From NCBI GenBank assembly GCA_963827755.1, contig CAWHCQ010000017.1:46071-110070 (forward strand): a stretch of 64,000 bases of DNA, in the 5' to 3' direction. Made by a program: the position numbers and the translations under genes. The stretch's first letter is position 1, and each line of letters starts with the position of its first letter. A model generated the notes under the pieces. The model ran no database searches, was not told the origin of the DNA, and was given only the letters and a program-made list of their open reading frames with translations. This document shows, piece after piece, positions 16,327 to 24,259 of this stretch. The stretch is from an uncultured Gammaproteobacteria bacterium. GTDB lineage: Bacteria; Pseudomonadota; Gammaproteobacteria; UBA9214.

Positions 16327-17391
16327 TCAGTCGTGGTATTGCCTGCTGAGCTGGTGAACGGCACTGATCATGGCGCCAACGTGTTCCGGATTGACGTCGG
16401 GGTTGATGCCATGGCCAAGGTTGAATACATGGCCGGTGCCGGCGCCATACTGTTTCAATACCGCGCCGACCTTTTCGTGAATAATTTCCGGCGCCGCATA
16501 CAGGGTAGCAGGGTCGAGATTGCCCTGTAACGCGACCCGGTCACCAACCCGCTTGCGCGCCATGGCCAGGTCGGTTGACCAGTCAATGCCAAGTGCATCG
16601 ACACCGGTGTCGGCCATCGCCTCCAGCCACTGGCAGCCGCCCTTGGTAAACATAATGACCGGAACCTTCACACCCTCGTGTTCACGCTTAAGGCCGTCGA
16701 CAATCTGTTGCATGTAGCGTAGCGAGAATTCGGCGTAGTCCTCGGGGGTGAGGATACCGCCCCAGGTGTCGAAGATCATCACGGTCTGCGCACCGGCGGC
16801 AATCTGTGCATTCAGGTATGCCGTCACCGACTCTGCCAGGATGTTCAGCAAACGATGCATTAACGCCGGTTCGTTGTAGAGCATGCCCTTGACGCGCGAG
16901 TAGGTCTTCGACGCACTGCCCTCGACCATGTAGGTCGACAGCGTCCAGGGACTGCCCGAAAAACCGATCAGCGGAACGCGGTTGTTAAGCTCTTTCCGGA
17001 TCAGGCGCACGGCATCCATCACGTAACGCAATTCGTTTTCCGGATCCGGGACGCCAAGCGCCTTGATGTCGGCGGCCGTGCGCACCGGCTTGTGGAACCG
17101 CGGGCCTTCGCCTTCTGCAAAATACAGCCCGAGTCCCATGGCGTCCGGAATGGTGAGGATGTCCGAGAACAGGATGGCCGCGTCCAGCGGAAAGCGCTCG
17201 ATCGGCTGCAGGGTGACTTCGCAGGCCAGTTCAGGGTTGGTGCACAGGTCCATGAAGCTGCCGGCCTGTTTGCGAATCTTGCGGTATTCCGGCAGGTAGC
17301 GGCCGGCCTGGCGCATCATCCATACGGGAGTGACGTCGACGGGCTGGCGCAGCAGCGCGCGGATGAAGCGGTCATTTTTTAGTGGTGGCAT
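16327..17391 (-). CDS. hemE: Uroporphyrinogen decarboxylase
   Basis: [26 protein letters not shown]. Confidence 0.98.
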
Positions 17392-17450
17392 TGGGGTATT
17401 GTAAGCGGGGATGGTGTTTTGCGTAACTAGTTTTCAGTTTTTTGGGTTTT

Positions 17451-18122
17451 GTTTCGCCCTGACCGGGCGAGGCACCTTTCTCCGCTCCGCCGATTTGGTA
17501 GAAGCGCCTTGCAGGCGCTGGTTTTATTTTATGCGGGCTCTCGCGCCCGCGCGGCGAGATACTTTTCTTTGCTCCGCCAAAGAAACGTATCCAAAAGAAA
17601 GGCGGCCCGAAGGTGCAGCCCGAATACTCATTTTCAATGAGTATTCGGGTTCCCTGCGCTTCTCGCGAAAACCGGCGCATGCGCAACTCGCAATCTCGCT
17701 GCGCTCGAAAGCTCAGACAGGGCGCATGCTTCATCCGGTTTTCACTGCGATGCTCGGCTGCGCCTACGGGAAGGTAGGTCAACTCCCACATACTCACGGA
17801 TTGGGGGTAGATTTACCCACCCGTAGCACTCACCGAGTACCGCAGCCAATCCGGGGAATAGCCGCGCACCCTGTCTGAGCTTTCGAGCGCAGCGAGATTG
17901 CGAGTTGTGCGCGGCCCCCGGATTGGCGAGGAACGCAGGGGACCGGCGTAGCCGGTGAGTGCTCCGGGTGCCTTTCTCTTTGGGTACTTTCTCTTGGGCA
18001 AGCAAGAGAAAGTACCTCGCCGAGCGGGCGCGAGAGCCCGCATCCAAAAACAACCGCGCCTGCAAGGCGCCCCAACAAACAAGCGCAGCAAAGAAAGAGC
18101 ACCTAGCCCGACAGGGCGAAAC
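17451..18122. repeat. Inverted pair of ~330-bp structured repeat elements (MITE/structured-RNA-like)
   Basis: 17451-17788 aligns with the reverse complement of 17802-18122; identical 39-nt core at 17684-17722 and 17869-17907. Confidence 0.9.
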
Positions 18123-18163
18123 CGAAACATCAAACGGCGTAAAAAAATAACAATGCCAATTGA

Positions 18164-19616
<1,453 letters not shown>

Positions 19617-19618
19617 GC

Positions 19619-22600
19619 CTAGTGACCTCCCTTTGCGGCACGTGCCGTGACCACCTGGGCCGCTTGCATCTCCTGCAGCGCACGCCGGTAATCGACCGGC
19701 ATGACCTTGATGAATTTCGGCAGCATAGCGGCCCAGTTATCAAGGATGCTGCGGCCGCGTGCGCTGTCGGTATAGTGCACATGTCTTTCGATCAGGCGGT
19801 GCAGTCGCAGGGCATCATAACGGGTCATATCGCTGCTGATGTCTACGCGGCCGTGGGTCTCCAGGTCGCCGCCCTGGTGGTCGAGTTTTTCAAGTGCGTC
19901 GTCCTCGGCCGCAATCGGCTCGAGTTCGACCATGGCAAGGTTGCAGCGTTGTTCGAAGTCGCCACGCTCGTCGAGTACATAGGCGATGCCGCCACTCATT
20001 CCGGCAGCGAAGTTCCTGCCCGACTCGCCCAGTACCACGACGATTCCGCCGGTCATGTATTCGCAGCCATGGTCGCCGACGCCTTCTACAACAGCGCAAG
20101 CGCCGGAGTTGCGTACTGCAAAGCGCTCACCGGCAACGCCCCGGAAATAACATTCACCGCTGATGGCGCCATAGAGCACCGTGTTGCCGACGATAATGTT
20201 TTCTTCGGCGATAATCGGCGTTTCCGCGGGCGGATAGACGACGATGCGGCCGCCACTGAGGCCCTTGCCGACGTAATCATTGCCTTCGCCGATCAGCGTC
20301 AGGCTAACGCCATGCGCTGCAAAGGCCCCGAAACTTTGTCCGGCGGTTCCGCGCAGCGTGATGCTGATGGTGTCTTCCGGCAATCCCGCGTGCCCATAGC
20401 GCCTGGCGACTTCGCCGGACAGCATGGTGCCCACGGTGCGGTTGGTATTCTTCACCGGCAGGTCGATTTGCACCGCTGTTTTGTTATCCAGTGCCGCGCG
20501 CGACAGTTCGATCAGTTGATTATCCAGTGCCCTGGTGAGGCCGTGGTCCTGTACGTCGGCGCGGTAAATGCCGACGCCTGCTGGCGCCGCAGGCTTGTGC
20601 AGGACGCGTGAAAAATCGAGACCCTGGGCCTTCCAGTGATTTATGGCGTGACGCATATTAAGGCACTGTGACTGGCCGATCATGTCGTCAAACCTGCGGA
20701 AACCGAGTTTCGCCATCAGCTCGCGAATCTCTTCGGCAACGAAGAAAAAGTAGTTCACCACGTGTTCCGGTTTGCCGGTAAAACGCTTGCGCAGCTCCGG
20801 GTCCTGGGTGGCGACACCGACCGGGCAGGTATTGAGGTGACACTTGCGCATCATGATGCAGCCTTCAACAATCAGCGGCGCGGTGGCAAAGCCGAATTCA
20901 TCGGCACCCAGCAGTGCGCCGATGACCACGTCGCGGCCGGTGCGCATGCCGCCATCGACCTGCACCGCGATGCGCGAACGCAGGTTGTTCATCACCAGTG
21001 TCTGGTGGGTCTCGGCAAGGCCGATTTCCCAGGGAGATCCGGCGTGCTTGATCGAGGTCAGCGGGCTGGCGCCGGTACCACCGTCATGGCCCGAGATAGT
21101 GACATGATCCGCATGTGCCTTGGAAACGCCGGCTGCAACCGTACCCACGCCGACTTCTGACACCAGCTTCACACTGATGTCTGCCTGCGGATTGACGTTT
21201 TTCAGGTCGTGGATCAGTTGTGCCAGGTCCTCGATGGAATAGATGTCGTGGTGCGGCGGCGGCGAGATCAGGCCAACGCCCGCCGTGGAGTGGCGAACCC
21301 TGGCGATAGTTGCATCGACCTTGTGACCTGGCAGCTGCCCGCCTTCACCGGGCTTGGCACCCTGTGCCATCTTGATCTGGATCATGTCGGAATTGACCAG
21401 GTACTCGGTAGTTACCCCGAAACGGCCGGATGCCACCTGCTTGATGGCGGAGCGTTTTGAATCCCCGTTTTCAAGCGGCTTGAAACGCTCGGTCTGTTCA
21501 CCGCCCTCACCGGTATTGGACTTTCCGCCAATTCGGTTCATCGCAATGGCCAGCGTCGTGTGGGCCTCGTAGGAAATGGAACCGAATGACATGGCGCCCG
21601 TCGAGAAGCGTTTGACGATTTCCTTCGCAGGCTCGACTTCATCCAGCGGTACCGGTTTTTCCGGAAAGTTGAGCTCGAACAGACCGCGCAGATTCAACAG
21701 GCGTTCATTTTGTTCATCAACCAGTTGCGAAAACTCCCGGAAGGTCTTTGCATCATTTGCGCGCGTGGCATGTTGCAATTTTGCAATGGAGTCCGGCGTC
21801 CACATGTGGTCTTCGCCACGCAGGCGGAAGGCATAATCGCCGCCGACATCAAGCTTGTTCCGGTAGATCGGGGCGTTGCCATAGGCATTCTGATGCCAGC
21901 GTACGGTTTCGCCGGCGACCTCCGCGAGCCCGATACCTTCGATGGTGGTTGCGGTGCCGGTGAAGTAGGCATCGACAAATTCAGTGCTCAGGCCGACGGC
22001 ATCAAAGATCTGGGCCCCGCAATAGGACTGGTAGGTCGAGATGCCCATTTTCGACATGACCTTGAGCAGACCCTTGCCGATGGCCTTGATATAGCGTTTA
22101 CAGATCTCGTGTTCGTCGAGTTTTTCTACCAGCTGTTCACGAATGGAGATGAGTGATTCAAAGGCCAGGTACGGGTTGATTGCCTCGGCGCCATAGCCGG
22201 CAAGCGTCGCAAACTGGTGAACTTCGCGGGCGGTGCCGGTCTCGATGACCAGCCCGGACTCGGTGCGCAGGCCGGCCTGCACCAGGTGCTGGTGGACGCT
22301 GGAGGTGGCGAGCAGGGCCGGGATTGCGATGCGATCGATGTTGGCGCCGCGATCCGACAGGATGAGGATATTAAAGCCTTCCTGCACCGCGTCTGTTGCC
22401 TGCTGGCAGACAGAGGTGAGTGCGCCCTGCATGCCGTCCGCGCCTTCTGCGGCGTCATAGCAGATATCGATGGTATGCGTGCGAAATGCACCATCGGTGT
22501 GGTCCTGGATGTGCCGGATGCGTTCGATATCGGTGTTGGTCAGGATTGGCTGGCTGACTTCAAGACGCATGTGTCCGCCGGTTGATTCGAGTTCCAGCAG

Positions 22601-24259
22601 GTTCGGGCGCGGACCAATCAGAGAGACCAGCGACATCACCAGTTCTTCGCGAATCGGGTCGATTGGCGGGTTGGTGACCTGTGCAAAATTCTGTTTGAAG
22701 TAGTTCGACAGGGGCTTTGGCTTGTTCGACAGCACCGCTACCGGGTTATCGGCGCCCATCGAACCGATGGCTTCCTGGCCGGTGAGGGCCATCGGGGTCA
22801 TCAGGAACTTGATGTCTTCCTGGGTATAGCCAAATGACTGTTGCCGATCGAGCAGGGTCTCGTGATCCGGGGCCATCGCGCTGACCTCGCCGGGCAGATC
22901 GCGGAGCCGGATCTGGGTCCTGTTCAGCCAGTCCTGGTAGTCATGGCTGTCGGCGAGGGCGTTTTTGACTTCCTCGTTATCGATAATGCGGCCCTGCTCC
23001 AGGTCGATCAGGAACATCTTGCCGGGTTGCAGGCGCCATTTTTTGACAATGCGCTCTTCCGGGATATCGAGCACGCCCATTTCCGAGGCCATGACCACAA
23101 GGTCGTCATCGGTAATCAGGTAGCGCGCCGGGCGCAGGCCGTTGCGGTCGAGGGTGGCGCCGATCTGGCGGCCATCGGTAAAGGCGACGGCGGCCGGTCC
23201 GTCCCAGGGTTCCATGACGGCGGCATAATATTCGTAAAAGGCGCGGCGTTTTTTATCCATCAGCGGGTTGCCGGCCCAGGCCTCGGGGATCAGCAGCATC
23301 ATGGCATGGGCGAGGGAATAACCACCGGTGACCAGTAATTCCAGCGCATTGTCGAAGCAGGCGGAGTCCGACTGGCCTTCGGCAATCAGCGGCCAGAGTT
23401 TCTGCAGGTCTTCACCGAACAGTTTCGATGTCATGGATTGACGGCGTGCATTCATCCAGTTGATATTGCCGCGCATGGTGTTGATCTCGCCGTTGTGGGC
23501 GATCATGCGAAACGGATGTGCCAGGTCCCATGACGGGAAGGTGTTGGTGGAAAAGCGCTGGTGTACCAGGGCAAGTGCCGAGATCACGCGCGTATCATTC
23601 AAATCGGTGTAGTAGGTATTGACCTGGTTGGCCAGCAGCATGCCCTTGTAGCACAGGGTGCGCGCGGACATGGACGGGACGTAAAAGGTCTCGAGGCCTT
23701 CCCGGTCCGAATTCTGCAGCATGATTTCGACGCGCTTGCGGATAATGAACAGCTTGCGTTCGAATGTATCGGTATTCAGGCAATTCTCGCCCTTGCGGAT
23801 GAATACCATGCGAATGACCGGTTCAACCTGCCTGACGGATTCACCGAGGCCGGAGTTGTCGGTGGGGACGTCGCGCCAGCCGAGCAGGCCCTGGCCTTCT
23901 TCGGCAGTGATCCCGGTGATCAGGGTTTCGCAAAAATTGCGAATCTCCTCGCGGGCCGGCAGGAACAGCATGCCCACGCCATAGTCACCGGCAGCCGGCA
24001 GGTCGATGCCGAGGGCGGCGCATTCCTCGCGCAGGAAGGCATCCGGGATTTGCATGAGGATGCCGGCACCGTCACCGGCCAGCGGGTCGGCACCGACCGC
24101 ACCGCGGTGGGTCAGGTTTTCCAGGATGCGCAGCCCCTGCTGGACGATCTCATGACTCTTGCGCCCCTTGACGTTGGCGATGAAGCCGACGCCACAGGCA
24201 TCATGCTCGTTGGCAGGGTCATACAGGCCTTGTCGGGGTGGCAGCGTACCGTACTTCAT
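19619..24259 (-). CDS. gltB: Glutamate synthase large subunit
   Basis: [48 protein letters not shown]. Confidence 0.98.

Follow-up and report, generated by a model that had tools for sequence, protein, structure and literature searches.

A covarying palindromic repeat in the hemE-gltD spacer of an uncultured gammaproteobacterium and its family across beta- and gammaproteobacteria

What keeps a large palindrome with no credible open reading frame (ORF) in the spacer between hemE and a gltD-like gene? The question is raised by positions 17451-18122 of the window, the 64,000-nucleotide stretch of an uncultured Gammaproteobacteria bacterium analyzed here (GTDB lineage UBA9214; assembly GCA_963827755.1, contig CAWHCQ010000017.1), where two diverged arms of ~320 nt form a 672-bp near-palindrome. 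A preliminary description, made from the sequence alone, had inferred selection on a multi-stem, single-stranded fold and named a non-autonomous mobile element as one explanation. Both proposals found support in the computational analyses described below. The element is of a kind already known, a structured, non-coding and mobile-looking intergenic repeat, yet we found neither a catalogued RNA family nor a published description that combines, as it does, a long covarying rod, a near-invariant module and presence in about a tenth of the genera sampled. We favor, at a probability of roughly 0.45, a non-autonomous structured repeat copied in trans by a putative protein that recognizes one of its modules (module C) and the folded strand.

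The pair is not unique. Searching the arms by blastn against their own assembly (2.85 Mb in 52 contigs, 91.8% complete; hereafter G000), we recovered 16 loci and two 40-nt scraps, and a genome-wide search for the 39-nt core that both arms share returned 29 cores with 0-2 mismatches at these 16 loci. Twelve of the loci are convergent pairs with a core spacing of about 145-150 nt, two are solo arms (both on contig C4) and two are interrupted, either where a contig ends or by a nested repeat (C20 and C45). Alignment of 13 copies revealed a modular anatomy. The outermost part is a T run and a GC hairpin (GTTTCGCCC-loop-GGGCGAG), followed inward by one to three sub-units, each made of module A (GCGCCTTGCAGGCGC and a T tail) and the module B hairpin GCGGGCTCTCGCGCCCGC. 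Next come module C, a perfect hairpin (GATACTTTTCTTTG..CAAAGAAAAGTATC) followed by CAAAAGAAAGG, then the arm proper and, innermost, a short palindromic center, which in other copies carries GGGAGGGGTAGATCAA..CCCC. Some copies host other small nested palindromes of the repetitive extragenic palindromic (REP) type. In two of them a REP doublet (GTAGGATGGGTAAAGCG...CTTTACCCATCCTAC) is nested exactly at the element center (C17:39730-40522 and C45:12008-12409; L105 and L114), and at C40:74202 another doublet (GTAGGAGCCAGCGCCAGCTGGCGAA..) stands in place of part of one arm. The same ~55-nt insert was also observed in the module B hairpin loop at different loci of G000 (C40:74202-74967, L110) and of its nearest relative, G012 (L124); it may be a further small nested element.

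The pairing of the arm has been preserved while its sequence changed. Each arm folds as a single long irregular rod. It comprises P1 (~15 bp, interrupted by an A-A or G-A mismatch) and the side hairpin P2, variable in both length and sequence among copies. A junction helix lies between UGCGCUUCUCGC and GCGAUGCUCGG, and beyond it come P3, P4 and, as the distal loop, the 39-nt core. Folding of the arms against shuffled sequences gave z scores of -4.4 (left) and -6.3 (right), and three nested stems differ in sequence between the two arms with pairing kept. RNAalifold, run on a MAFFT alignment of 32 diverse arms, also recovered compensatory pairs, with P3 columns occupied by CG, GC, AU and UA. We then counted pairs with R1, a covariance model of 157 positions and 42 pairs built without module C, the structure of which was hand-written on a 20-arm alignment from this genus only. 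Among 147 R1 matches (129 distinct), 89.6% of the cells were paired, compared to 69.7% after shuffling and 36-45% when the pairing was slid. The 129 distinct arms showed changes on both sides in 33 of the 42 pairs, with 923 doubly changed cells where 294 were expected. A set of 34 arms from across families behaved similarly (89.2% paired, 62.6% shuffled and, over both sets, 36-46% slid; 34 of the 42 pairs changed on both sides); all nine P3 pairs were doubly changed in this set and six of the nine showed all four Watson-Crick types. These counts come from alignments fitted to R1 and hence favor it; the fold is nevertheless secure because the effect is large and the MAFFT/RNAalifold run was independent. 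The covariation is as clear as in accepted RNA families.

The folding energy alone cannot identify the strand, since the left arm folds no better than its complement (z -4.4 for both). Wobble pairs provided the discrimination: of the 5123 cells, 362 were G-U and 99 A-C, and seven pair positions had 15-117 G-U and 0-1 A-C. This excess of G-U over A-C indicates that the folded strand reads from the outer end to the center, whether as RNA or as single-stranded DNA. Thus, the covariation in the 129 distinct and 34 cross-family arms and the wobble bias bear out the proposed selection on a multi-stem fold, and the arms show what is generally asked of a structured non-coding RNA, covariation beyond controls on a defined strand.

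The part of the arm held constant is not the one first proposed. The preliminary description had the fold presenting a fixed loop, the 39-nt core, and the core is indeed identical in both arms: an exact match search found precisely two occurrences in the window, one per strand (17684-17722, plus; 17869-17907, minus), and no match of any kind in 100 shuffles. Its invariance, however, ends with this genome. Relatives keep only CAACTCGC...GCTCARACAGGG, with the middle changed (CAACTCGCGATCTCGCT..GCTCGATTCGCTCAAACAGGG), lengthened into a hairpin (GGATTTGCC..GCAAATCC) or deleted (CAACTCGCTGCGCTCAAACAGGG), and other families may have an assortment of unlike small hairpins in place of the entire distal part. 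Family-wide, nothing varies more than the distal loop; the invariant columns are instead the unpaired junction strands (UCCCUGCGCUUCUCGC and CUGCGAUGCUCGG) and the outer, 41-nt module C, which the preliminary description had recorded only as a hairpin.

The compensatory stem differences reported for the two window arms proved not to be private to this pair either. They distinguish two arm types, beta (..CGCGAAAACCGG.., 3' strand GATGCUCGGCUGCGCC, module C CTTTTCTTTG) and alpha (..CGCCAATCCGGG.., GGUACUCGGUGAGUGC, module C CTTTCTCTTG), which recur at other loci and in other species of the genus. An element usually combines one arm of either type, although a few copies in G000 are beta-beta or have an extra arm. 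From the usual pairing, the spreading unit in this lineage is the alpha-beta pair. The repeats of module C differ coordinately between the types, CTTTTCTTTG/CAAAGAAAAG/CAAAAGAAAGG at 17558-17602 and CTTTCTCTTG/CAAGAGAAAG/CAAAGAGAAAGG at 17970-18016, which would fit either two binding specificities or alternative RNA pairing.

Module C is also the part that led us to the wider family. It is built as a 28-bp palindrome, with sequence-fixed halves of 11-14 bp and a variable loop of 5-7 nt, plus a third, direct copy of the purine half, in total 41 nt. A distant search of the plasmid and chromid collection matched module C only, at 85-88% over 50-54 nt and in unannotated spacers, in replicons of Burkholderia, Ralstonia, Pasteurella, Aeromonas and Pseudoalteromonas. 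The match in Pasteurella multocida ends a ~400-bp inverted pair behind dapF that follows the plan described here (C hairpin, CAAAAGAAAGGCGACCCG, P1 closed by CCCG/CGGG), and Burkholderia cepacia carries a solo short form between pdhB/aceF and lpdA. No match was found in phage records, nor to module C in Escherichia coli. We next screened 401 evenly drawn genomes of the class. A 35-base pattern (CTTTTCTTTG-N4-9-CAAAGAAAAGTNNCCAAAAGAAAGG) was present in 13 of the 401 genomes and 10 of the 320 genera with no control hits, and its last 23 specified bases, at up to 2 mismatches, in 38 genomes and 32 genera with one control hit (one of these 23-base positives, G348, is an unpublished genome). Positive genomes had 1-14 copies of the module C pattern. 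The R1 model, trained without module C, made 26 matches in 20 foreign module-C loci, directly behind module C and with a best E value of 4e-25. The family is therefore spread over many beta- and gammaproteobacterial lineages and is not an oddity confined to a few proteobacteria. A lineage-specific element, suggested by blastn (22 of 24 genomes of the genus, 0 of 16 genomes of other families), was likewise overturned by the module C and R1 matches abroad. In one carrier, two inverted solo arms 4.6 kb apart bracket genes for a HipA-like kinase and a MotY/OmpA-like protein (G161:C3:1569500-1579500, L191), with no mobility gene or transposase between them.

Closer to home, R1 arms were found in 27 of 37 genomes of the genus, with 29 arms in G000 and 1-16 in each of the other carriers (16 in G003, 15 in G012), and in 32 of 54 genomes of the order, which comprises a single family, representing three of its six genera. 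A scan of genome records with the core pattern returned 62 loci, all in uncultured metagenome-assembled genomes (MAGs) labeled Burkholderiales, Burkholderiaceae, Gammaproteobacteria and similar. Occupancy differs between species. Of 30 gltD-hemE loci, 14 have arms (10 pairs, one single and three cut by contig ends), four lie on contigs that end at hemE and 12 have both genes and no arm. Four of the 12 armless sites retain remnants of the outer modules, a case of decay, six hold a different element with terminal inverted repeats and two hold REP-like palindromes. The unrelated inverted-repeat element in the six spacers has ends like CCTGTCTCGCGCAAAGCCGCCAAGGCGCAAAG (L076, L091, L093, L094, L095 and L102); the gltD-hemE site seems to attract palindromic repeats. 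At a second locus, between the convergent rhodanese and RNase T genes, arms are present only in G000 and G012, a lineage-specific gain, and 24 of the 30 loci have both genes without an arm and spacers with assorted REPs.

Copies within a genome are nearly identical: each of the arms at the G000 hemE locus is 97-100% identical to its five nearest arms at other G000 loci (one of these ten comes from a record without genome assignment), and one arm of G048 is 99% identical to arms at three other loci (their source only presumed to be G048). Between species, whose HemE proteins share 75-84% identity, the similarity of the arms is mostly 80-90%. The differing occupancy and the near-identity within genomes indicate that the element spreads; with no enzyme encoded inside the copies, this agrees with the non-autonomous element first suggested. 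Either transposition or gene conversion that homogenizes the copies, or both, could produce this pattern. G012 offered no comparison of filled and empty sites, for it shares the checkable positions or has its contigs interrupted there. In relatives, too, contig ends frequently fall within the element or next to it (for example, G014:C187, G013:C441, G041:C140 and G012:C291), making the repeat a frequent cause of assembly breaks in this lineage.

At the hemE-gltD locus itself, the two arms show inverted homology in two stretches, one of 118 nt (74% complementarity) and one of 45 nt (96%), as recovered by a repeat search of the window, so that the homologous inverted arms of the preliminary description are real. 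The same search delimited a terminal inverted repeat (88%) between 17451-17466 and 18107-18122. The left terminus is the GC hairpin GTTTCGCCC-loop-GGGCGAG (17451-17471, plus), preceded by a T run and paired with the right terminal hairpin (..CCCGACAGGGCGAAAC; 18103-18122, minus); other copies and relatives have the same terminus, altered in loop and stem. Inward on the left follow module A, a REP-like hairpin of GCGCCTTGCAGGCGC and then GGTTTTATTT (17503-17529, plus) that resembles a terminator reading inward, and module B, the hairpin GCGGGC-TCTC-GCGCCCGC (17533-17550, plus), which the sequence and the 13-copy alignment identify as a variant of the terminal hairpin. The element has two terminator-like sites for a shuffle mean of 1.3, not significant alone. 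The module A 15-mer GCGCCTTGCAGGCGC has 32 of its 50 genomic copies inside elements, and its free copies are REPs of the GTAGGAGCGCCTTGCAGGCGCGAT type. The left module C is of the beta type (GATACTTTTCTTTG-ctccgc-CAAAGAAACGTATC and third repeat CAAAAGAAAGG; 17558-17602, plus) and is the part most widely conserved in the family. It leads into the beta arm (17598-17770, plus; R1 match G000:C17:63668-63840, 155.4 bits), which carries P1, a long P2 (17619-17649), the junction helix, P3, P4 and the distal loop.

The center, a short palindromic spacer at 17771-17819, separates it from the alpha arm (17820-17976, minus; R1 match G000:C17:63890-64046, 163.3 bits), which follows the same plan with other stem sequences and a short P2 (ACCGGC-tac-GCCGGT). 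The side hairpin is thus long in one arm and short in the other, as first described. Beyond the alpha arm lie the alpha-type module C (GGTACTTTCTCTTG-loop-CAAGAGAAAGTACC and third repeat CAAAGAGAAAGGC; 17970-18016, minus), identified from the inverted repeat and the sequence, and modules B and A (18024-18070, minus), with the hairpin GCGGGCTCTCGCGCCCGC and then GCGCCTTGCAGGCGC and GGTTGTTTTT directly behind gltD. The TACTTT..CAA.GAAA.GTA hairpin and the outer sub-copies with GCGCCTTGCAGGCGC noted earlier are also present. We found no credible conserved ORF in the arms, in line with the earlier reading: the indels in the side hairpins and stems are not multiples of three, and the side hairpin bearing the only ATG is variable or absent. 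This eliminated a small protein gene, as the ORFs of the arms are not conserved across copies.

Both flanking genes are on the minus strand. On the left, hemE (16327-17391; uroporphyrinogen decarboxylase, Pfam URO-D, E 5.7e-147) has its start codon 60 nt from the element and, on the right, the gltD-like gene for the glutamate synthase small subunit (18150-19616; Pfam Fer4_20 and Pyr_redox_2) has its stop codon ~28 nt away; gltB (19619-24259; Pfam GATase_2/Glu_synthase) lies upstream of the latter. At the 13 G000 loci with both flanks, the neighbors are convergent in six cases, tandem in five and divergent in two. Spacers between the element and the genes are 6-60 nt at most ends, and the copies are mostly directly behind stop codons.

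No catalogued family accounts for the element. Scanning positions 17000-18600 of the window with Rfam 15 gave a best E value of 0.84 and scores all far below gathering, and 15 foreign loci gave no matches at E <= 0.01. On the Burkholderia and Pasteurella loci, the only family recovered was Bp1_684 (RF02421, Bp1_Cand684_SIPHT) in B. cepacia, beside the element. This candidate is described between pdhB and lpdA in B. pseudomallei, with a positive RT-PCR (PMC3521395). It shares the pdhB/aceF-lpdA spacer with the B. cepacia element, and its overlap with this copy takes in the terminal GC hairpin and 17 nt at the start of module C, but it is on the opposite strand, lies mostly outside the element and matches neither the window nor other carriers. 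The Rfam scans also provided no match to the element from a ribozyme, a riboswitch or a known small RNA, and no matching RNA model from the palindrome-associated transposable element (PATE) and omega RNAs of IS200/IS605, the bridge RNA of IS110 or the retron non-coding RNAs. Of the two outcomes that the preliminary description had named as refuting it, a lack of further copies and covariation is clearly contradicted, and no strong match to an Rfam or miniature inverted-repeat transposable element (MITE) family emerged in the libraries searched. Literature on MITEs in Burkholderia and Ralstonia, with supplements and subscription journals outside its scope, yielded no description of the element, and a 2024 review of prokaryotic MITEs, searched by term, carries no mention of elements from Burkholderia, Pasteurella or Aeromonas (PMC10969869).

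The search for an enzyme was similarly negative. G000 has no IS110 domain that we could find and a single reverse transcriptase, on C14, which has no part of the element nearby and is unrelated to it; no TnpB was seen adjacent to copies, although TnpB had no separate search. The suggested ribozyme or guide-RNA role found no support in these results or in those from Rfam. No transposase was seen inside or beside copies at the 16 G000 loci or at ~130 foreign loci, and clustering of 721 neighboring ORFs from the ~130 loci produced no recurrent protein except artifacts of repeat ORFs and orthologous housekeeping genes. G000 does encode four Y1_Tnp genes. A classical REP family, GTAGGAGCGGATCTAATCCGCGA, flanks two of these genes, which are RAYT-like (REP-associated tyrosine transposases), at C17:33500-34450 (outside the window) and C11:210590-210720 (L119/L121), and the repeat segments beside them match up to 35-59 other places in the genome, constituting a separate REP/RAYT system.

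As to transcription, a promoter of the element's own was rejected: a scan for sigma-70-like consensus sequences returned 0 sites, and the spacing was judged by eye unfit for sigma-54. Near-identical words occur in sequencing runs from sediment metagenomes and, in small shares, in three RNA runs. Among four runs examined, contigs of two metatranscriptome runs contain pieces of the element, with a ratio of element to flank depth about the same as in a DNA run, so that these contigs do not demonstrate transcription.

Under the favored reading, the unit is an arm of about 230-330 nt comprising the GC-rich terminal hairpin, module C and the ~170-nt rod, in which compensatory changes on one strand maintain the pairing. 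In this lineage the alpha and beta arms, both old types, are joined head to head in a palindromic element, whose recent multiplication has produced at least 12 pairs besides solo arms. A trans-acting protein could copy it by a REPIN/RAYT-like route or by some other mechanism without target duplication; for its recognition of module C speak the half-sites, fixed around a variable loop, and the joint change of the three repeats between arm types. Sitting in 3' spacers and supplying hairpins to the flanking transcripts, the element would be tolerated and might even be of use.

Several observations weigh against this scenario. No partner enzyme was found among the Y1_Tnp/RAYT, IS110 and reverse transcriptase genes that we looked at: the Y1_Tnp/RAYT loci of G000 are flanked by different REPs and have no arm or module A or C, RAYT genes are at least 2.5 kb from arms in five other genomes, and Y1_Tnp does not discriminate at the level of the Pfam family, since all 10 motif-positive genomes and all 5 motif-negative ones examined have it. 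Neither 13 G000 copies, the gltD-hemE series nor four copies of another family showed a target-site duplication. The flanks of the element continue the palindrome or are unrelated, and old insertions could have lost the duplication. The ends are ragged, with variable numbers of A-B-C' sub-units and no sharp constant terminus, and the genomes compared include no closely related filled and empty pair. The copy number, 1-16 arms in most genomes, is low for a selfish repeat. The degree to which module C and the unpaired junction strands are conserved, in families ranging from roughly 40% to over 70% GC, looks more like that of a functional RNA or protein-binding site than that of a drifting transposon. 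In addition, the B. pseudomallei candidate at the same pdhB/aceF-lpdA spacer, as far as its published account goes, hints that the B. cepacia position has been stable in the long term.

The main rival reading, which we regard as possible though on balance unlikely, is that the arm is primarily a functional structured RNA, a cis element or a small RNA gene, that multiplied secondarily and is homogenized by gene conversion. A cis element might act as a stabilizer, as a processing or termination signal, or as an Hfq-type A-rich/U-rich platform in module C. The strong covariation across families and the invariant unpaired strands speak for such an RNA, the G-U-rich strand is the one transcribed by an inward-reading gene, and a co-directional gene ends just upstream of the arm in five of eight oriented foreign loci, although some solo arms point away from the upstream gene. 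Also in its favor are the low copy number, the conserved Burkholderia position and the ability of the pyrimidine strand of module C to pair alternatively with the third repeat (nine contiguous pairs in the alpha type). Yet the fixed sequence of the module C stem, with its variable loop, suits a protein that recognizes the duplex better than it suits an RNA hairpin. The element pieces in metatranscriptome contigs would agree with an RNA, but their depth relative to the flanks is that of DNA, and the absence of sigma-70-like promoters, the weakness of the terminator-like hairpins and the lack of an Rfam family all tell against it. An essential role is further disfavored by the remnants at 4 of the 12 empty gltD-hemE sites and by the absence of arms from 10 of the 37 genomes of the genus. 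The readings weighed here, including those that follow, are not mutually exclusive.

Among the closest described systems are REPINs, inverted REP pairs mobilized in trans by RAYTs (PMC3116915, PMC3337134). The element resembles them in being non-coding, palindromic and multi-copy, in its location behind genes, in the compensatory changes of its hairpins and in its postulated trans enzyme, and also in largely vertical inheritance and slow turnover. It may be asked, then, whether in this genome it is simply a giant REPIN, in which a resident RAYT recognizes the inverted outer modules A. This would explain the 29 arms of G000, a genome with four Y1_Tnp genes, and module A does belong to the same sequence family as the free REPs and a REP doublet of a relative (GTAGGAGCGCCTTGCAGGCGCGAT). 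Module A also accompanies the element in G000 (29 R1 arms) and G012 (15; G003 has 16) and was absent from it in the other species inspected. We nevertheless judge it improbable. A REPIN is a single hairpin of about 70-110 nt, and the cognate RAYT gene is bordered by the same REPs. The element, by contrast, measures 672 bp, each arm spans 230-330 nt with five helices, and only module A is REP-like. Even this module has GTTGG rather than the GTAG head, and a different tail; module C, the candidate recognition site, lacks the GTAG head as well. The RAYT genes inspected are flanked by other REP types and none adjoins or is flanked by arms. The arm family also does without module A in many lineages.

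Other palindromic families share parts of this architecture. BIMEs, BOX, RIME and NIME elements are likewise modular, with palindromic units, variable end sub-units, nested small repeats and a location in 3' spacers. To our knowledge, each is confined to a genus or family and lacks a long covarying rod, whereas here a near-invariant 41-nt module and a homologous fold extend across many families. MITEs derived from DDE-type insertion sequences (IS), such as Correia elements and ERIC-type units, also have terminal inverted repeats and no ORF, occupy intergenic positions and vary in presence between species. A classical MITE, made of IS ends joined by internal deletion with module C and the third repeat as putative transposase-binding sites, is very improbable. 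The terminal inverted repeats (GTTTCGCCC..GGGCGAAAC here, GCTAGTGNNNGTTTCGGCC in another family), the repeated sub-terminal motifs that resemble binding sites and the coexistence of solo and paired forms are as a MITE would have them. The conserved parts, however, are the internal junction strands and the sub-terminal palindrome rather than the tips, no direct target duplication was seen, and no ORF-bearing parent IS appeared at the 16 G000 or ~130 foreign loci. The arms are also homologous over their full length, with an internal, strand-specific covariation that a DDE mechanism does not require. Least probable of all is that module C serves as the site of a site-specific recombinase or other DNA-binding dimer and the element as a recombination or architectural site, for although its layout (inverted 11-14-bp halves, a 5-7-nt spacer and a third direct repeat) is like that of dif/FRT-type sites, with invariant half-sites, a variable spacer and three repeats that change together between alpha and beta, neighbor clustering linked no recombinase to any copy and the covarying 170-nt rod would be left unexplained.

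A bolder proposition, which we consider doubtful but worth stating, is that the family represents a class of structured nucleic acid that is ancient but so far uncatalogued, occurring in about a tenth of the sampled beta- and gammaproteobacterial genera and served by a dedicated putative trans-acting protein. Such a class could be a structure-guided mobile element with an unlinked enzyme or a regulatory RNA platform that became repetitive secondarily, and the pairing of alpha and beta arms would then reflect two partner specificities.

Intergenic repeats of bacteria are usually short, lineage-specific and poorly conserved. The element described here unites three unusual features: a covarying fold of ~170 nt, a 41-nt module conserved nearly letter for letter across families, and absence from Rfam and from the MITE literature searched. 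With a model of the family, annotation could account for breaks in the contigs of many MAGs and for their 'orphan' conservation between genes. If the element is only a decaying selfish repeat, it would be a useful marker of modest interest. If a partner protein exists, cultured Ralstonia, Aeromonas, Pseudoalteromonas or Burkholderia cepacia would provide a tractable model, from which we might learn how structured repeats are maintained by enzymes not linked to them, or which might bring a new and widespread RNA element to light.

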